From an uncultured virus (IMG/VR IMGVR_UViG_3300035539_000076) (lineage: Duplodnaviria > Heunggongvirae > Uroviricota > Caudoviricetes): DNA of 20,000 bases. Under the pieces are notes generated by a model. The model made no database searches, was not told the origin of the DNA, and was given only the letters and a program-made list of their open reading frames with translations. Numbering within the stretch: the stretch's first letter is position 1; the number at the start of each line of letters is the position of its first letter. Below, piece after piece: positions 1,807 to 20,000 of this stretch. The stretch is taken from the IMG/VR virus record IMGVR_UViG_3300035539_000076; one strand, 5' to 3'. The position numbers and the translations under genes were made by a program.

Positions 1807-2060
1807 TATAATTTGTATATAATAATACTACCTTTACTAAATATTAGTAAAATAGCTGGCAAGACCTAAGGGTCTTGCTTTTTCTTTATCTATATGTTAT
1901 AATAAAAATAATCCATAGTGAAATTTTTTTAAAATTTCCTTTTGCTCGCAAGACCTTAGGGTCTTGCTTTTTCTTTATCTGTATGTTATAATAATTTTGT
2001 CATTATTATATGCGAGACGCCGATATATTTTATATACGCAGGGCTATTGTCCTGCATTTT
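1804..2060 (+). ncRNA. Candidate cluster of three small RNAs of about 65 nt
   Basis: TGnTATAAT at 1804-1812, 1895-1903 and 1984-1992, each followed 44-46 nt later by a terminator hairpin (1859, 1948, 2038); no RBS-led ORF inside. Confidence 0.45.
1859..1994 (+). repeat. 47-bp direct repeat, two copies (1859-1905, 1948-1994): terminator hairpin plus extended -10 promoter
   Basis: GCAAGACC-TWAG-GGTCTTGC-TTTTTCTTTATCTRTATGTTATAATAA; two mismatches between copies; period 89 bp. Confidence 0.9.
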
Positions 2061-2240
2061 CTATTTTTTAGAGTAAAAACCACCACCACGTAATACAAAA
2101 TCCATCTTTCCATAAAGTCTTTCCATAACATCGCCACATCTTCCACATATAACTGTTTTTTGTTTATCATATTCCTCTATAGTCATACTTACTTTAGATA
2201 CATGTCCACAGTTAACACATTTAAAGTTGTAAGTTGGCAT
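2061..2240 (-). CDS. FmdB-family zinc ribbon protein (59 aa; not in ORF track)
   Basis: MPTYNFKCVNCGH...ICGRCGDVMERLYGKMDFVLRGGGFYSKK has MPxY-CxxC...CxxC and a C-terminal GxGFY typical of the family; AAGGAG RBS upstream. Confidence 0.85.
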   Translation of the reverse strand: MPTYNFKCVNCGHVSKVSMTIEEYDKQKTVICGRCGDVMERLYGKMDFVLRGGGFYSKK

Positions 2241-2294
2241 ATAAACATCTCCTTATATAGTATTCTTCTATATTATACAACAAGATCATGTGTT

Positions 2295-2333
2295 TGTATA
2301 GGTAAAAAAAGAGGCGCGTGGTGCGCCGTCTTT
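2295..2333 (-). terminator. Intrinsic terminator with conserved ACCTATACA tail
   Basis: Minus strand GGCGC-ACCAC-GCGCC-TC-T7-ACCTATACA. Confidence 0.75.
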
Positions 2334-2367
2334 ATTCTTCACCCGACAAATCGGGCTGAGTAAAAGA

Positions 2368-2772
2368 TTATCTGATATACTCTATACATATTCCTCTGCC
2401 ATTGGTTTTTAAAAAATTTTCTATATAACGATTTAAATCTTTTTCATCTTCATCGTCAGTAGGAACTATTGAAATTCTTTTTACTTCTTCATCTCCGTTT
2501 CTATATTCTTTATAACCAACCAAATTATAATGAAGTTCTTGGTCTTCATATGCTTGTTCTGGATCAACCATAAATCTTTCGTAATAATCCTCAATAAATC
2601 TCCTAATTTCTTCAGCTTGTTCTTTTGAATACATTTCATATTGGTCTGCTCTATCATTTCTTAAAAATGTGAAATTTCCTTTCGAACCCCAAATTCTTTG
2701 GTCTTTTTCTCTTGTTTCATAGTTTTCATCAAAATCTCCTTCAATTATTTCCATAAAATTAACTAATTTCAT
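2368..2772 (-). CDS. Acidic hypothetical protein (134 aa)
   Basis: ORF with AAAGGAG RBS, its own promoter motif and leader, and a downstream terminator. Confidence 0.85.
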   Translation of the reverse strand: MKLVNFMEIIEGDFDENYETREKDQRIWGSKGNFTFLRNDRADQYEMYSKEQAEEIRRFIEDYYERFMVDPEQAYEDQELHYNLVGYKEYRNGDEEVKRISIVPTDDEDEKDLNRYIENFLKTNGRGICIEYIR

Positions 2773-2786
2773 ATTAAAACTCCTTT

Positions 2787-2819
2787 CCTCAGCCAGCCTT
2801 GCGGTCTGGTCTTACGAGG
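2787..2819 (-). ncRNA. Conserved structured 5' leader motif, copy 1
   Basis: CCUC-GUAAGA-CCAG-A-CC-GCAA-GG-CUGG-CU-GAGG directly before AAAGGAG. Confidence 0.7.
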
Positions 2820-2845
2820 GCAGATTAGAATATTTTCTAATCCTT

Positions 2846-2863
2846 ACATATTATATATACCAA
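2846..2863 (-). promoter_or_regulatory. Repeated phage promoter-like motif TTGGTATATATAATATGT
   Basis: Identical 18-mer at 3749-3766 and 19056-19073; always intergenic and upstream of minus-strand genes. Confidence 0.8.
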
Positions 2864-2884
2864 GAATTTTCATTTTTTATTTTC

Positions 2885-2921
2885 TGTATAGGTAAAAAAA
2901 GAGGTGCGTGTTCAGCCTCTT
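2885..2921 (-). terminator. Intrinsic terminator with ACCTATACA tail
   Basis: AGAGG...CCTCT stem overlapping the stop of 2912..3211, then a T-tract and ACCTATACA. Confidence 0.65.
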
Positions 2922-3211
2922 GAAATTTTCTTTAAATTTGCCAAGGCTATTTCTTCAGCCCATGACAAAATGTTAAAATCATTTAATTCTTCTAGGCCAT
3001 AACGGCCTATTTTGTCTTTGATTCTTTCTAGCTCAAGTATTTCTTGAGCTTTTTTCTTTTTTGCATCTTCCGCAATTAAATGCGGAAATAAAATTTCTTT
3101 TAATTCTTCCTCAAAATCGTCAAAAGACGATTTTGGGATACTTTCTACTTTTAATTCATATTCCTTTTTCATCCATGATTTGATGGAATCTACCTTATCT
3201 TTCAATGTCAT
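2912..3211 (-). CDS. Hypothetical protein (99 aa)
   Basis: ORF with AAGGAGGG RBS; lies downstream of the hammerhead. Confidence 0.85.
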   Translation of the reverse strand: MTLKDKVDSIKSWMKKEYELKVESIPKSSFDDFEEELKEILFPHLIAEDAKKKKAQEILELERIKDKIGRYGLEELNDFNILSWAEEIALANLKKISRG

Positions 3212-3242
3212 ATAATAATCCCTCCTTCGGGTATTATTGATT

Positions 3243-3266
3243 TGTCAGAATTATAGGCTTCCGACA
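3243..3266 (-). other. Hairpin with GCCUAUAA loop (second copy at 10263-10282)
   Basis: UGUCGGAA-GCCUAUAA-UUCUGACA. Confidence 0.55.
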
Positions 3267-3281
3267 CGTAGCCTTTGTTAC

Positions 3282-3347
3282 TGACCTGTCTCATCAGTGG
3301 CAGGAGGTCATCCCTACCAGACGAGGGCAGAACCCTCGTTTCGACAG
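3282..3347 (-). ncRNA. Type II hammerhead ribozyme
   Basis: Minus strand CUGUC-GAAA-CGAGGG-UUCUG-CCCUCG-UC / UGGUAGGG-AUGACC-UCCUGCCA-CUGAUGA-GACAG-GUCA. Full CUGAUGA/GAAA core, GUC triplet, three helices, and loop I UGACC complementary to 3' GGUCA. Confidence 0.93.
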
Positions 3348-3351
3348 TGGC

Positions 3352-3675
3352 TTAAACGTACTTAACGAATCCGGGCACAGCCACAATGTGCCCTTTTTCA
3401 TTTCGAAGAGCTTCCCCAGTGTTTGGGGATACTACATCGTTTCTATCGGTAGCTTGTGCTACCATTGCTGATACTACGTAGATGGTATCTTTTTCAGGTG
3501 CAGGTAAACCTTCTACACCTGTGGATCTTGATTCTTTAACTTCAAAACCGTTAAGTCCTTCAACGGTTTTTGTTTCTGTTTTTACTCTGGGAATAATCCC
3601 AGAGGGTTGGATGGTTATTGTTTCTGATCCTTTTTTAATATTTAATGGGTGGGGTGTGCAATTTATTATATTCAT
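3352..3675 (-). CDS. Small NxTPH-motif protein (107 aa), possible Crn4-like ring nuclease / anti-CRISPR
   Basis: IINCTPH...PSG..PRV...GLP...YVVS..VA...R.D...P...R...G.I pattern of a widespread viral family. The link to Crn4 is from recollection and is unverified. Confidence 0.5.
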   Translation of the reverse strand: MNIINCTPHPLNIKKGSETITIQPSGIIPRVKTETKTVEGLNGFEVKESRSTGVEGLPAPEKDTIYVVSAMVAQATDRNDVVSPNTGEALRNEKGHIVAVPGFVKYV

Positions 3676-3689
3676 ATTAAATCTCCTTT

Positions 3690-3722
3690 CCTCTGCCAGC
3701 CTTGCGGTCTGGTCTTACGAGG
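3690..3722 (-). ncRNA. Conserved structured 5' leader motif, copy 2
   Basis: CCUC-GUAAGA-CCAG-A-CC-GCAA-GG-CUGG-CA-GAGG then AAAGGAG; part of a ~95-bp repeat shared with 2770-2863. Confidence 0.7.
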
Positions 3723-3748
3723 GTGGACTAGAATATCTTCTAATCCTT

Positions 3749-3766
3749 ACATATTATATATACCAA
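3749..3766 (-). promoter_or_regulatory. Repeated promoter-like motif TTGGTATATATAATATGT
   Basis: Exact copy of the 18-mer. Confidence 0.8.
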
Positions 3767-3803
3767 CATTTTTTGATTTTTTTCATTTTATTATATGTTA
3801 GTT

Positions 3804-3846
3804 TATATAGGTAAAAAAAAGAAAGAGAGCTTTCGCTCTCCCTTTT
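3804..3846 (-). terminator. Intrinsic terminator with ACCTATATA tail
   Basis: GAGAGC-GAAA-GCTCTC hairpin followed by TTTCTTTTTTTT. Confidence 0.85.
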
Positions 3847-4026
3847 TTATATTATCAGAACTAGTAGCAATACTGCTACTGTTCCAACTTGCAGCACACC
3901 AAGTGCTGCAAGCGGTCCTACAAACACAAGAACAAATAATACTGGTACCAATAATAATAAATACGCAGGTCCAACAATAACTAACATCAATAAAGAAAAC
4001 AAAACAGAAATTAAAAAATTAAACAT
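3847..4026 (-). CDS. Uncharged hydrophobic membrane peptide (59 aa; not in ORF track)
   Basis: MFNFLISVLFSLLMLVIVGPAYLLLLVPVLFVLVFVGPLAALGVLQVGTVAVLLLVLII; AAGGAGG RBS, own promoter, leader and terminator. Confidence 0.75.
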   Translation of the reverse strand: MFNFLISVLFSLLMLVIVGPAYLLLLVPVLFVLVFVGPLAALGVLQVGTVAVLLLVLII

Positions 4027-4039
4027 ATAATGTCCTCCT

Positions 4040-4074
4040 TTAGCTGCCAGCCGATTGGTCTGGACTTACGCTAA
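4040..4074 (-). ncRNA. Conserved structured 5' leader motif, copy 3
   Basis: UUAGC-GUAAGU-CCAG-A-CC-AAUC-GG-CUGG-CA-GCUAA then AGGAGG; outer helix differs in sequence but still pairs. Confidence 0.7.
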
Positions 4075-4079
4075 TTTTT

Positions 4080-4097
4080 TCATGTTACATATACCAA
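4080..4097 (-). promoter_or_regulatory. Variant promoter-like motif TTGGTATATGTAACATGA
   Basis: Same TTGGTATAT core, same position relative to leader and gene. Confidence 0.6.
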
Positions 4098-4182
4098 GGA
4101 TTTTCTAATTTTTATTTTACCGTTCAACAACAACCTTTCGTGATACAATCTATAATGAACATAGACTAGGGAGGTTTTATTA

Positions 4183-5622
4183 ATGAAAAGTTTAACAAAA
4201 ATGGCTTCCCAAATGGTTCCTCAAGGATATGGTGTAGAAGACCATTTGGATAGAGATATATACCAAGAATATTCGCAAAAACAGAGAAAAAAAGATAAAA
4301 AAAGAGTATTGAAAAATAATGCTATGGGTGCTGCTTTAGCTGGTGGAGCAATAGGTGCTGGGCTTGGTGCTGCGTTAGGCCACAAAGGACAAAAAGCTTG
4401 GCAACAAGCTGGAGTTGATTTTCCTTGGCTTAAGACAAAAGCGGGATTATTAGGTGGTGCCGCTGGAGCTGGTATTGGTGCTACTTCAAGTATTGCTGGA
4501 TTAGCCAACGCTACAAACAAAGAAAGAAAAAGACAGGAGAAAACAGCTAGTATAAATATGCAAAAGATAGCTGCATTTTCTGCTGGAGTTGATTATGTTT
4601 TATACAATGACAACGTAGAACCTATGTTAAAACTTGCCAAATTAACTGAGATAGAAAAAAGAAAATTACAAGATATGAGGGCAAGAGATTATCAAAGTAT
4701 GAGTGATGTAGATCGAAGATATTTTAATGATTTTAAAGAAAATGAAAAAAAGTGGAATAGGGAAGAAACATGGAGAAAGCTTTTAGGGGGTATGGGAACT
4801 GGTGCATTAGTAGGAGCCGGTGCTGGTGCTATAAGAGGGGCTACAAAATCAATACCAACAGACAATAATGCGCCAAATCCAGCAGATAGACTTCCGGGGG
4901 TTGTACAAAAAAGCATAGCTGGAGTAGATACTATTACAGGGGCGGGTTCTCCTGATCAAAATCAAACCCCTCCTCAAGCAAACCCTAGTAATACGCCTAA
5001 CAAATGGGGTAATGCATTAAAAGGTGCTGCAGGCTGGGGAGCTGCCGGTGCTGCTGCAGGTGTTGCTGGTGGATGGATAGCTGATCGTGTAGCCAAGAAA
5101 AAACGTCAAGATCAAATAGACGAATATTCTTACACTAAAGCTTTAAAAGGTGGAAGTCCATATAGGCCTGCATATGATGCGGCTATGAATAGATTGAAAA
5201 CTGCTTCAGACCATAGCATATCTGCAACTGTAAAAATAGAAGATGACTTTAAGTTTGCTAAAGAAGCTTATGCCAACCTTGGAAAGTTCATGCAATCTTT
5301 GAGAAATACTAGTCAAAACGCTGGCAAGTCTATGCAACAATTAAACAAAGCTAAAGGTAAGTATAAAAATTTCCATTCTGATTTAGGCAAAGGATATTTA
5401 TCTAAATCATTAAGTTCACAGGCTTCTGGAGCTAAAGAGGTTGGAGGTTATAACAAATTACATAAGGTGTATAACAGCAATAATATGTCAGGGAAAAAAA
5501 CTCAAATAGCTGAAAGTAGAGATTTGAGAAAAGCTCAAATTGATCTTGAGGTTTCTAAAAAAACAAACAAAAATCCATATAGTAAAAAAATAGATTATGA
5601 TTACGCTTTAAACAGAAAATAG
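4183..5622 (+). CDS. Gly/Ala-rich glycine-zipper protein (479 aa), putative virion internal/ejection protein
   Basis: Several GxxxG hydrophobic segments separated by Lys-rich stretches; GGGAGG RBS; TGATACAAT at 4141-4149 upstream. Function is inferred. Confidence 0.7.
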   Translation: MKSLTKMASQMVPQGYGVEDHLDRDIYQEYSQKQRKKDKKRVLKNNAMGAALAGGAIGAGLGAALGHKGQKAWQQAGVDFPWLKTKAGLLGGAAGAGIGATSSIAGLANATNKERKRQEKTASINMQKIAAFSAGVDYVLYNDNVEPMLKLAKLTEIEKRKLQDMRARDYQSMSDVDRRYFNDFKENEKKWNREETWRKLLGGMGTGALVGAGAGAIRGATKSIPTDNNAPNPADRLPGVVQKSIAGVDTITGAGSPDQNQTPPQANPSNTPNKWGNALKGAAGWGAAGAAAGVAGGWIADRVAKKKRQDQIDEYSYTKALKGGSPYRPAYDAAMNRLKTASDHSISATVKIEDDFKFAKEAYANLGKFMQSLRNTSQNAGKSMQQLNKAKGKYKNFHSDLGKGYLSKSLSSQASGAKEVGGYNKLHKVYNSNNMSGKKTQIAESRDLRKAQIDLEVSKKTNKNPYSKKIDYDYALNRK

Positions 5623-5635
5623 GAGGTAATTTTTT

Positions 5636-6019
5636 ATGATTAAAACAGCAAGATATTACAAATTAGCCGAAGATGAAAAAAAGAAAAAAAGAATTAATCC
5701 ATGGTTAGCTGGAGGATTAGCCGCTGCAACAGCTGCCGGCGGATTGGCATATGCTAATCACAGAATGGATGGAGCTTTAGTGGATAAAGCTAAAGGTTGG
5801 TTTAATGGTGGAAATCAGCAAACACAAGGTGGCAGCATGGAATCTAATCCTAGAGGGGGGGTACCTCAAATGTCTAATCCTGATTCAGAAAATGTTCAAG
5901 TGCCTAAATTACAACAAGCCCCTGATCTATCGCAACAAATAGATTCTCAATCCCCAACTCAGTTTGCCCAAAATACTACTAGAAATCAAATGCGCAATTC
6001 TTTATTTGGCAATAGATAA
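5636..6019 (+). CDS. Small protein with one Gly/Ala-rich hydrophobic helix and a Gln-rich tail (127 aa)
   Basis: AGGAGG RBS; KKKKRINPWLAGGLAAATAAGGLAYA segment. Confidence 0.8.
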   Translation: MIKTARYYKLAEDEKKKKRINPWLAGGLAAATAAGGLAYANHRMDGALVDKAKGWFNGGNQQTQGGSMESNPRGGVPQMSNPDSENVQVPKLQQAPDLSQQIDSQSPTQFAQNTTRNQMRNSLFGNR

Positions 6020-6030
6020 AGATAGATAAG

Positions 6031-6054
6031 GCAGGAGCAAAACTCCTGCTTTTT
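6031..6054 (+). terminator. Intrinsic terminator
   Basis: GCAGGAG-CAAAA-CTCCTGC-TTTTT. Confidence 0.8.
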
Positions 6055-6075
6055 CTGATATTGGAGGGTTATGAC

Positions 6076-6678
6076 ATGATAAACAATGAATTTATAAAAA
6101 CAGCTGCAGGAACTAATTATTTGAATTATTATGGAAATCAAATGACAGAGCCTGTCAATATAAGAGGAATATACCATAGTGATGAAGATGAAGATTTAAT
6201 GAGAACAAATACGTCTCAAGCTTTGTCTTTGGAAAATCAAAGTAGAAAAAAGAAGAAAAAAGGTGGTGCCGTTGGAGGGGTAACTGGTGCTGTCTTAGCC
6301 GGGGTGCCAACAATAGTGGCTGTGGGAAATGAAAAGGGCCTTGGAGCTGGGCTCGCTGCTGGAGGCGCTGCTGGTGCTGCTGGAGGATTGCTAGGCTATT
6401 TTACAGGCAAAAAGGTTAGCGGCAATAAAGAGAAAGAAAAAGCCAATAATTATAAGCAAACTAATACAATTAATTATGTTGGAATAGTAGATAGGAATTA
6501 TAAGAAATCAAATCAAGATAAAAATAAAATGCCTATTCCTAGAATAGAAGGCAATGAAAAGAATAGAAATTTAACAAAACAACACCATCAATCTGCTATC
6601 AATATGGCTGAATTATTTGGGAAATTAGATGGATTAAGGGCACAATATAATCTACAGAATGCCCCCAGCCAAATATAA
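6076..6678 (+). CDS. Glycine-zipper protein (200 aa)
   Basis: GGAGG RBS at 6063-6067 favours the ATG at 6076; paired Gly/Ala helices follow a poly-Lys stretch. Confidence 0.8.
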   Translation: MINNEFIKTAAGTNYLNYYGNQMTEPVNIRGIYHSDEDEDLMRTNTSQALSLENQSRKKKKKGGAVGGVTGAVLAGVPTIVAVGNEKGLGAGLAAGGAAGAAGGLLGYFTGKKVSGNKEKEKANNYKQTNTINYVGIVDRNYKKSNQDKNKMPIPRIEGNEKNRNLTKQHHQSAINMAELFGKLDGLRAQYNLQNAPSQI

Positions 6679-19143: not shown

Positions 19144-20000
19144 ATGATGGACTGGTCTAAATTCAACAAAGGTCTTTTAACCGAGAGGTACGTGGTTAGA
19201 CATATAAAAGAAACAAAAAAAGATGATTCAATCCGAACTTTAAGTGCGGGAGGATATCATTCTGCAGCCATAACAGAAATAGGGAAGTTGTATATTTGGG
19301 GATGGAATTATCACGGTCAACTTGGGGATGGCACTACAACTCAACTAAATGCCCCAACGCTAATAGATGCGTTTGGTGGTGAAAAGATAGTGTCTGTTAG
19401 TTTAGGACAATACTATTCCTCAGCCATAACGGAGACAGGTAAACTTTATACTTGGGGGTATAATTATTATGGTCAACTTGGCGATGGTACTACGACTCAG
19501 CGAAATACTCCAACCTTAATAGATTCGTTTGACGGCGAGAAAATAGTAGCTGTTAGTTTAGGTTATTATCACTCCTCAGCCATAACGGAGACAGGTAAGT
19601 TATATACTTGGGGGTCCAATGGTTATGGCCAACTTGGTGATGGCAGTACAACTCAACGAAATACCCCAACCCTCATAGACGCATTTGGTGGAGAGAAGAT
19701 AGTGGCAGTTAGTTTAGGAACGTATCACACTTCAGCCATAACAGAAACAGGTAAACTCTATACTTGGGGCTATAATTATTACGGCCAACTTGGCGATGGC
19801 AGTACAACCAATATATCTACTCCAACCTTAATAGATTCATTTGGCGGCGAGAAGATAGTGGCTGTTAGCTTAGGTCAATATCATTCCTCAGCCATAACAG
19901 AAACAGGTAAACTCTATACTTGGGGCTATAATTATTACGGCCAACTTGGCGATGGTACTACAACTCAACGAAATACCCCAACCCTCATAGACGCATTTGG
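19144..20000 (+). CDS. RCC1/BLIP-II repeat beta-propeller protein (partial, runs off the window; not in ORF track)
   Basis: AAGGAG RBS; 52-aa repeats VSLGxYHSSAITETGKLYTWGxNxYGQLGDGxTTQRNTPTLIDxFGGEKIVA. Confidence 0.93.
   Translation, partial: MMDWSKFNKGLLTERYVVRHIKETKKDDSIRTLSAGGYHSAAITEIGKLYIWGWNYHGQLGDGTTTQLNAPTLIDAFGGEKIVSVSLGQYYSSAITETGKLYTWGYNYYGQLGDGTTTQRNTPTLIDSFDGEKIVAVSLGYYHSSAITETGKLYTWGSNGYGQLGDGSTTQRNTPTLIDAFGGEKIVAVSLGTYHTSAITETGKLYTWGYNYYGQLGDGSTTNISTPTLIDSFGGEKIVAVSLGQYHSSAITETGKLYTWGYNYYGQLGDGTTTQRNTPTLIDAF
19267..20000 (+). repeat. 156-bp tandem coding repeat, about 4.7 copies in the window
   Basis: GCCATAAC at 19267, 19423, 19579, 19735 and 19891. Confidence 0.95.

Follow-up and report, generated by a model that had tools for sequence, protein, structure and literature searches.

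A complete type II hammerhead ribozyme between a predicted Crn4b-type ring nuclease gene and an orphan gene in phage DNA, a candidate mRNA-splitting junction

Organization of the two-gene unit

The window analyzed here, the whole 20,000-nt stretch of DNA, holds on its minus strand a unit in which a gene for a predicted Crn4b-type ring nuclease (crn4) and a 99-aa orphan ORF are separated by a type II hammerhead ribozyme (Table 1). Positions 1-8.3 kb of the window match a 183.5-kb linear viral record, G001, which is ~82% complete and has a G+C content of 30%; from 2000 to 4300 the two are 100% identical. Along the minus strand, the order of elements is terminator, promoter-like motif, leader, crn4, hammerhead, two hairpins, 99-aa gene, and probable terminator, followed by the next promoter and leader. 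The ends of the unit are marked by a terminator plus promoter motif on one side and by a terminator on the other, with no full promoter or terminator called inside, whereas neighboring cassettes have a terminator plus promoter instead of a ribozyme. The terminator-tail motif is shared by seven places in the record, and the stem that closes the unit (2920-2894) was missed by a simple terminator scan.

Table 1. Features of the two-gene unit, listed in the direction of the minus strand
Feature	Coordinates	Strand	Evidence
Intrinsic terminator of the upstream 59-aa gene, opening the cassette	3813..3843	-	Stem 3843-3822 plus T tail, terminator scan
Repeated phage promoter-like motif, TATAAT at 3758-3753	3749..3765	-	Direct-repeat families D3/D4/D6 in the window
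Structured 5' leader motif running up to the RBS	3690..3722	-	Folds; region z -3.5
Predicted Crn4b-type ring nuclease gene, 107 aa	3352..3675	-	PDB, profile, and fold matches
Type II hammerhead ribozyme	3282..3347	-	RF02276 42.1 bits, pair check, ensemble, descriptor scan
8-bp spacer hairpin, loop overlapping TATAAT	3243..3266	-	-9.5 kcal/mol
Hairpin around the downstream RBS	3214..3238	-	-7.7 kcal/mol
99-aa orphan ORF, second cistron	2912..3211	-	ORF with RBS
Probable terminator closing the unit, bulged stem plus T7 tail	2894..2920	-	Repeated terminator-tail family (D14)

The promoter-like motif at 3765-3749 recurs in G001 with 12 same-strand matches (no more than two mismatches) and four weaker ones on the other strand. 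We infer a promoter function for it, and its repetition, together with the small non-structural genes, suggests early transcription of the unit. The leader that comes next has a fold standing directly before an RBS in four copies, at 3722-3690, 2819-2787, and 4074-4040 on the minus strand and at G001:C1 ~155680-155715. The outer helix of this fold occurs in three different sequences, all still paired; the inner helix with its bulged A is constant, and the loop is variable. No Rfam family matches the leader at E ≤ 5. The fold could be a protein-binding operator or a stabilizer. In other viruses, three outside matches to the motif, two of them identical, were attributed to chance, none lying in a promoter-RBS setting.

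Helix II of the ribozyme begins at the fifth base past the crn4 stop codon (3354-3352), in agreement with the start 5 nt after the stop given by an earlier, sequence-only reading of this DNA, and G12 lies 9 nt past the stop. That reading also held that no terminator or promoter motif precedes the 99-aa gene. Indeed, scanning the minus strand from 3351 to 3212 gave neither a terminator-like nor a sigma-70 promoter-like site, but the statement needs amendment for a bare, perfect TATAAT hexamer at 3255-3250, in the loop of a downstream hairpin. This hairpin (3266-3243) and the one around the downstream RBS (3238-3214) each fold modestly better than shuffles (z -2.6 for both, with 4/200 and 2/200 shuffles as good, respectively), and an alternative pairing competes with the former in longer folds. 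The latter partly hides the RBS of the second gene, placing AAGGA in the loop and the following GGG and spacer in paired positions; the earlier description of this RBS as occluded is apt for the GGG and spacer but not for the AAGGA, which is open. In the model, cutting the RNA leaves access to this RBS unaltered at 37 °C and almost unaltered at 55 °C, and its release by cleavage is ruled out in silico.

The 99-aa protein matches no Pfam, NCBIfam, or PHROG family. A search for relatives returned only the protein itself among near-length proteins, none in viral contigs, and Atlas matches all under 0.9. Farther along the window, where plus- and minus-strand units converge, a duplicated 51-nt block (1855-1905 and 1944-1994) carries a strong terminator-like hairpin.

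Identity and fold of the ribozyme

The element at 3282-3347 on the minus strand is a complete type II hammerhead by sequence, having all three helices, an undamaged core, and a pseudoknot that involves loop I. This identification, first made from the letters, was borne out by an Rfam cmscan of the 20-kb window, whose sole match is Hammerhead_II (RF02276) at 3346-3280 on the minus strand, scoring 42.1 bits (gathering score 37; E 9.9e-6) and covering model positions 1-66 of 66. Read from the sequence, C3-A9 occupy 3297-3291 and G12-A15.1 occupy 3342-3339, with U16.1 at 3321, C17 at 3320, and the cleavage triplet GUC at 3322-3320. The core matches CUGANGA, GAAA, and the NUH triplet, the conserved G10.1-C11.1 pair (3290/3343) and the A15.1-U16.1 pair are present, and every base of the CUGAUGA, GAAA, and GUC elements listed previously is consensus. 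With C17 at 3320, the predicted cut falls between C3320 and U3319, where it had been placed before.

Helices I and III are loop-closed and helix II, of 4-5 pairs, is open, the topology that defines type II. Helix I has eight pairs, two of them G-U, and helix III has seven, A15.1-U16.1 included. Five Watson-Crick pairs are available to helix II and five to the pseudoknot of loop I with the 3' tail, but G3286 is common to both fifth pairs, so the real fold would be 5+4 or 4+5 and never 5+5; the 5-bp helix II and 5-bp pseudoknot of the sequence-only reading are each correct alone and cannot exist at once. In a fold of 3276-3352, which includes flanks and leaves out the pseudoknot energy, the active secondary structure is the MFE, with pair probabilities at 37 °C of 1.0 for helix I, 0.99 for helix III, and 0.64 for helix II, the last rising to 0.83 at 55 °C. 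The MFE of a longer stretch (3270-3360) is a decoy hairpin in which the core pairs with the pseudoknot strand; in the shorter stretch this hairpin has a probability of 0.18 at 37 °C. The folding program cannot score the pseudoknot, which competes directly with the decoy.

A descriptor scan found exactly one type II motif in the window and the overlapping 183.5-kb record, and none in 30 block-shuffled windows. The hammerhead has a G+C content of 57%, against 30% for the record. It is the only Rfam ribozyme in the record, which suggests that the phage is not generally reliant on such a device. No second ribozyme bracketing a gene occurs in the window or in the ~82% complete record, so the hammerhead is not one of a cluster. 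A circular RNA, which requires two ribozymes, was discarded as a reading, only one having been found. By its sequence, the element is a true new member of a known family, in that family's usual setting.

The upstream gene product

The 107-aa product of the upstream gene has no Pfam or NCBIfam match, and its assignment comes from structural databases. A direct phmmer comparison with PDB 9R7B gives E 2e-4, and a profile built from 50 of the 59 relatives found matches only the three Crn4 sequences in the PDB (best E 3e-13). The AlphaFold2 model of the protein (pLDDT 97) returns Crn4 chains for all of the top seven Foldseek matches, the best with E 9e-9 and a TM of 0.80 to 9R7B; the next match has E 1.7. 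Residues N5, T7, P8, H9, and R91 are invariant in 50/50 aligned rows, and T7, H9, and R91 align with PDB-chain residues (T13, H15, and R112 of Crn4a). In the hairpin-arm region, the profile shows gaps of 16 residues against 9SMA and of four against 9R7B, and the protein has the short arm of the Crn4b type, which is ~10 residues shorter than that of Crn4a. Crn4 enzymes have a conserved Thr/His/Arg set of which the His and Arg are essential for catalysis (Chi et al. 2025, PMC12830947). On sequence and model, the protein is a Crn4b-type ring nuclease with the catalytic Thr, His, and Arg.

Breakdown of cA3, cA4, and cA6 has been reported for cellular Crn4, and an anti-CRISPR role is proposed, unconfirmed, for phage copies in the same paper (PMC12830947). 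By sequence and model, the protein described here is likely an anti-CRISPR or anti-CBASS factor that blocks CRISPR alarm signals. A second Crn4-like gene occurs in the record at L052:8531-8887 (G001:C1 168531-168887), encoding 118 aa with a profile E of 2e-23 and keeping the Asn, Thr, His, and Arg. It overlaps the stop of a 475-aa gene that looks by eye like an SMC/SbcC-type ATPase, and no Rfam ribozyme lies nearby.

Phage and host context

The five runs that hold half or more of the sampled words are labeled oil-field metagenomes, and two of the five are marked as possible sources of this DNA. A class II ribonucleotide reductase encoded by the phage matches PDB 1XJE with E 9e-167, far above the next family member; we take 1XJE to be the Thermotoga maritima enzyme, and from this match the host is probably a member of the Thermotogota. 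Among the RNAs of the record are a tmRNA, with a tRNA-Ser gene beside it, and a HEARO RNA (L045:2115-2635, L047:7952-8161). On the plus strand of the window, 4183-6678 holds three Gly/Ala-rich ORFs (479, 127, and 205 aa) in which K-x-A motifs recur. They match no Pfam or PHROG family, and their products may be processed head-internal proteins. A 156-nt tandem repeat of at least five copies, at 76-83% identity, occupies 19254-20000. Type III CRISPR systems were present in all Thermosipho genomes of one study (PMC6211235).

Layout of other type II hammerheads

The arrangement at this locus was compared with that of other type II hammerheads in viral and metagenome contigs collected with two patterns drawn from this motif, a set of at least 198 loci that is biased toward this sequence subfamily and not free of relatives. 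The descriptor found at least 231 distinct motifs at these loci; 192 were left without rows from the same phage and near-end motifs, and 153 after similar upstream flanks were merged. Among the matches listed, a stop codon closing at least 50 codons lies 1-12 nt before G12 in 124/153, with a spacing of 2-3 nt in 81/153; the 9-nt spacing seen here occurs in one of the 153. The nearest stop triplet closes a frame of at least 50 codons in 119 of 145 cases, and the other two frames are open that far in 37/290, again among the matches listed. An RBS plus start follows downstream in 110/137 of those listed, at a median of 60 nt past the cut, against 108 nt here. Because the order stop, ribozyme, RBS is common in this survey, the arrangement at this locus appears to be the standard one.

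Two further properties emerge among the matches listed. A pseudoknot of at least 4 bp is present in 140/168, compared with a mean of 61 (maximum 75) when the tails are swapped, and two or more type II motifs occur at 55 of 145 loci. The genes upstream are mostly without assignment: 24 of the 146 upstream ORFs listed have a PHROG match, five with a named function and two of these anti-restriction, a count that, standing without a control set, does not show anti-defense genes to be enriched there. No pertinent report of a ribozyme beside anti-defense or ring nuclease genes, or linked to stop codons, came up among the matches listed in a literature search of mainly open-access main texts; Dataset S1 of PMC3088659 may already give stop-codon spacing.

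Association of crn4 with ribozymes

Viewed from the gene rather than the ribozyme, the pairing is rare. RF02276 scores above its cut-off in 0/30 other crn4-carrying viral records, which rules out an obligatory link between crn4 and hammerheads. In the opposite direction, crn4 occurs in one of 89 hammerhead-carrying viral records, many of them mutually related. This record, L139, is an unrelated 64.5-kb phage in which crn4 (9-386), two small genes, and a type II hammerhead (1000-1065) follow on one strand, with crn4 and ribozyme 0.6 kb apart. Scanned with Rfam, 20 plus 5 viral crn4 loci and five genome loci contained no hammerhead and one pistol ribozyme; nine further viral crn4 loci, four of them apparent duplicates, lay outside these scans. 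The pistol ribozyme (L015:4553-4615) lies 1.7 kb downstream of crn4 and directly past a stop codon; the genes around it are small, and a repeated motif precedes genes of this region. By tblastn, crn4 is found in 20 of 50,697 phage records. At such rarity even one hammerhead neighbor is above expectation, yet one case makes no statistic.

Sequence variants in related contigs

Four DNA runs (X5, X6, X9, and X11) were aligned to the window at 80% likeness; the evidence for swapped genes comes from single contigs, several at a depth of ~5. One X6 contig (record 20) carries crn4 and the ribozyme together with 22 substitutions and ends at the 3' edge of the pseudoknot. A single change falls in the ribozyme, in loop III; the difference between 1/66 positions there and 20/324 in crn4 is not significant (p 0.23).

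Other contigs depart from the reference on one side of the ribozyme. In X9 record 23, 623 other letters lie between the same promoter region and the ribozyme's 3' half, in place of 410 letters comprising the leader, crn4, and the 5' half of the ribozyme. This variant has an extra U after A9 and keeps the core, helix II, and most of the pseudoknot strand; X9 also holds the reference allele. On the downstream side, X6 record 19 follows the spacer 3259-3214 with two differences and then continues into other sequence starting with GTG, and in X6 the gene at 2368-2772 is replaced by 485 other letters. X5 record 9 departs from the reference at 3284. That another gene fills a swapped slot is judged from the length of the insert. 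Taken together, these sequences suggest that either gene slot can be refilled and that related phages swap genes at the ribozyme, which would act as a junction.

In X5 record 9, the 27 loose letters past 3284 resemble a terminator tail fused to an inverted leader start, either a real rearrangement or an assembly artefact. X11 record 3, aligned to 3285-3323, is another type II hammerhead in which helix III differs and is yet paired, with an RBS and ATG almost at once after it.

Proposed function and alternatives

On balance, and with a little more confidence than doubt, we favor a reading in which constitutive cleavage, in a region of this large phage where cassettes are reshuffled, splits the two-gene message into two separately decaying RNAs with structured, protected ends. 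A single transcript would start at the repeated promoter, span leader, crn4, ribozyme, and 99-aa gene, and stop at the terminator. Once the pseudoknot strand has been made, the hammerhead, judging by its family, would cut between 3320 and 3319, and the products, held together only by the 4-5 bp of helix II, should part. From the type II topology, the 3' end of the crn4 mRNA would consist of hairpin III and carry a 2',3'-cyclic phosphate; the downstream mRNA would open with a 5'-OH directly on helix I, with the pseudoknot retainable. Each gene would then be left with a separate mRNA that has structured ends and decays at its own rate. Because the cut leaves modeled RBS access unchanged, any uncoupling would act via RNA ends and stability; the sequence-only reading, which had self-cleavage uncouple the two cistrons with an occluded RBS downstream, is supported in its cleavage site and its two-gene unit, and splitting is also the interpretation preferred here. 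As a short conserved block between variable genes, the ribozyme may also mark a site of gene exchange in related phages, as the contigs suggest.

Whether the 5'-OH end is protective or destabilizing depends on host nucleases, and an alternative follows from the second outcome. Were the 5'-OH product quickly degraded, cleavage would keep crn4 high and the 99-aa gene low or brief, aided by the partly paired RBS. RNase J attacks 5'-OH ends, and a hairpin surrounds the RBS of the second gene. Decay after self-cleavage has a precedent in glmS (PMC6765202). The 3' product, however, would have no unpaired 5' base and would begin with an 8-bp helix able to carry the pseudoknot, which should make it a poor exonuclease substrate. 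The multi-ribozyme loci between successive genes, which make up 55/145 among the matches listed, are moreover hard to read as silencing everything downstream, and we regard this outcome as unlikely, if deserving of attention.

Somewhat less credit is due to the view that the hammerhead came with its cassette from a ribozyme-punctuated array of another element, may cut, matters little, and is kept mainly as a recombination handle. Its single copy in the record, its high G+C content, and the reliance of the neighboring cassettes on terminator plus promoter are all compatible with such an origin, as are the 30 other crn4-carrying viral records that lack RF02276 above cut-off and the phage's own second crn4-like gene, which has no Rfam ribozyme nearby. 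Against neglect of this kind, the core and helices are undecayed in the reference and, where covered, in X5, X6, and X9, and the X9 variant retains the core and pseudoknot strand behind a different insert.

The close approach of the ribozyme to the stop codon raises a further possibility, that a ribosome at the crn4 stop melts helix II and the cut thereby reports crn4 translation. A G12 only 2-3 nt past the stop, as in 81/153 of the other type II hammerheads among the matches listed, is well inside the footprint of a terminating ribosome. The 9 nt found here, a spacing seen in 1/153 of those listed, is among the least suited, since only the outer part of helix II would be within the ribosome's reach, and the outermost pair already competes with the pseudoknot. 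No regulation is needed to explain the spacing, for which close packing and recombination at the module suffice, and gating of this sort is improbable at this locus. Finally, it is very improbable that the second gene has its own promoter at TATAAT 3255-3250, leaving the hammerhead only to form the crn4 mRNA 3' end in place of a terminator: the perfect -10 hexamer is flanked by a 7-of-8 inverted repeat and the distance from cut to start is long for the matches listed (108 nt against a median of 60), but the site has no -35 box and no copy of the phage's repeated promoter motif, TATAAT is common in DNA of 30% G+C, and on the minus strand the repeat's single mismatch reads as a G-U pair, as would suit an RNA hairpin.

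A broader and distinctly speculative extension may also be considered. The hammerhead could be a portable junction that combines a gene-exchange block with self-installed RNA end caps, making captured genes independent, nuclease-resistant messages, and it might be preferred for genes that must act at once against cyclic-oligoadenylate defense. The Crn4b-type gene here would be one instance, beside the crn4 of L139 and that of the phage with the pistol ribozyme. If so, ribozyme-punctuated regions would be anti-defense islands and a guide to new anti-defense genes.

Independent of that extension, the locus offers a clean test case, with one ribozyme, two genes, a putative promoter and terminator, and apparent natural variants in which the upstream or downstream slot is exchanged. 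Its upstream product should give a measurable output, namely cyclic oligoadenylate breakdown and relief of type III CRISPR defense. The Crn4b-type neighbor and the apparent slot variants together make it a convenient test system. The locus also adds a predicted Crn4b whose catalytic residues are intact, encoded by a phage that probably infects Thermotogota, hosts in which type III systems abound.

Relation to known systems

The closest relatives of the ribozyme are the RF02276 hammerheads of Perreault et al. 2011 (PMC3088659), who described pseudoknotted type II hammerheads in prophages, some in clusters, and proposed that they cut long transcripts into single-gene mRNAs; the splitting idea has thus been in print since 2011. 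Tandem phage hammerheads in that study cleave in native transcripts of ~2 kb, 14 of 18 consensus motifs were active, and ribozymes flank the anti-restriction gene ardA (PMC3088659). Cleavage in Desulfovibrio cells has been reported for three type II hammerheads with phage-like genes nearby (PMC8782182), and reviews treat the role of self-cleaving ribozymes between small bacterial or phage genes as unresolved (PMC6765202). The present element shares with the hammerheads of PMC3088659 the open helix II, consensus core, pseudoknot between loop I and the 3' tail, and intergenic position among small phage genes, as well as a proposed role in mRNA splitting and, in ardA, a precedent for an anti-defense neighbor. 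It differs in being a single copy where theirs are clustered, in lying 9 nt from stop to G12 where 2-3 nt is common among the matches listed, in the longer spacer with two extra hairpins, and in having a Crn4b-type ring nuclease as its neighbor.

The upstream protein resembles the Crn4b of Chi et al. 2025 (PMC12830947; PDB 9R7B, 9SMA, 9QS9) in its predicted fold, its conserved Thr/His/Arg, and its encoding by a phage. Its identity to 9R7B is ~25%, and it is known here from sequence and model alone; it differs further in being followed by a ribozyme and accompanied by a second divergent copy elsewhere in the record.

The cassette structure recalls the PeSL cassettes of T4-type phages, in which a terminator and promoter flank small non-core genes and act as exchange points (Arbiol et al. 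2010, PMC2839356). Both have repeated blocks of terminator plus promoter, and in X6 it is between such blocks that the gene at 2368-2772 of the window is replaced. The promoter sequence and phage group are other than those described for PeSL cassettes (PMC2839356), and the structured leader and ribozyme appear here as extra conserved junctions.

The proposed effect on the second gene, for its part, has a counterpart in engineered systems. RiboJ-type ribozyme insulators are used in synthetic biology to give a downstream gene a fixed 5' end. The likeness lies in this self-cleavage, which sets that end whatever stands upstream; in contrast to RiboJ, the present element, as judged from its sequence, is natural, has type II topology with a pseudoknot, and would leave an upstream piece that is itself an mRNA.
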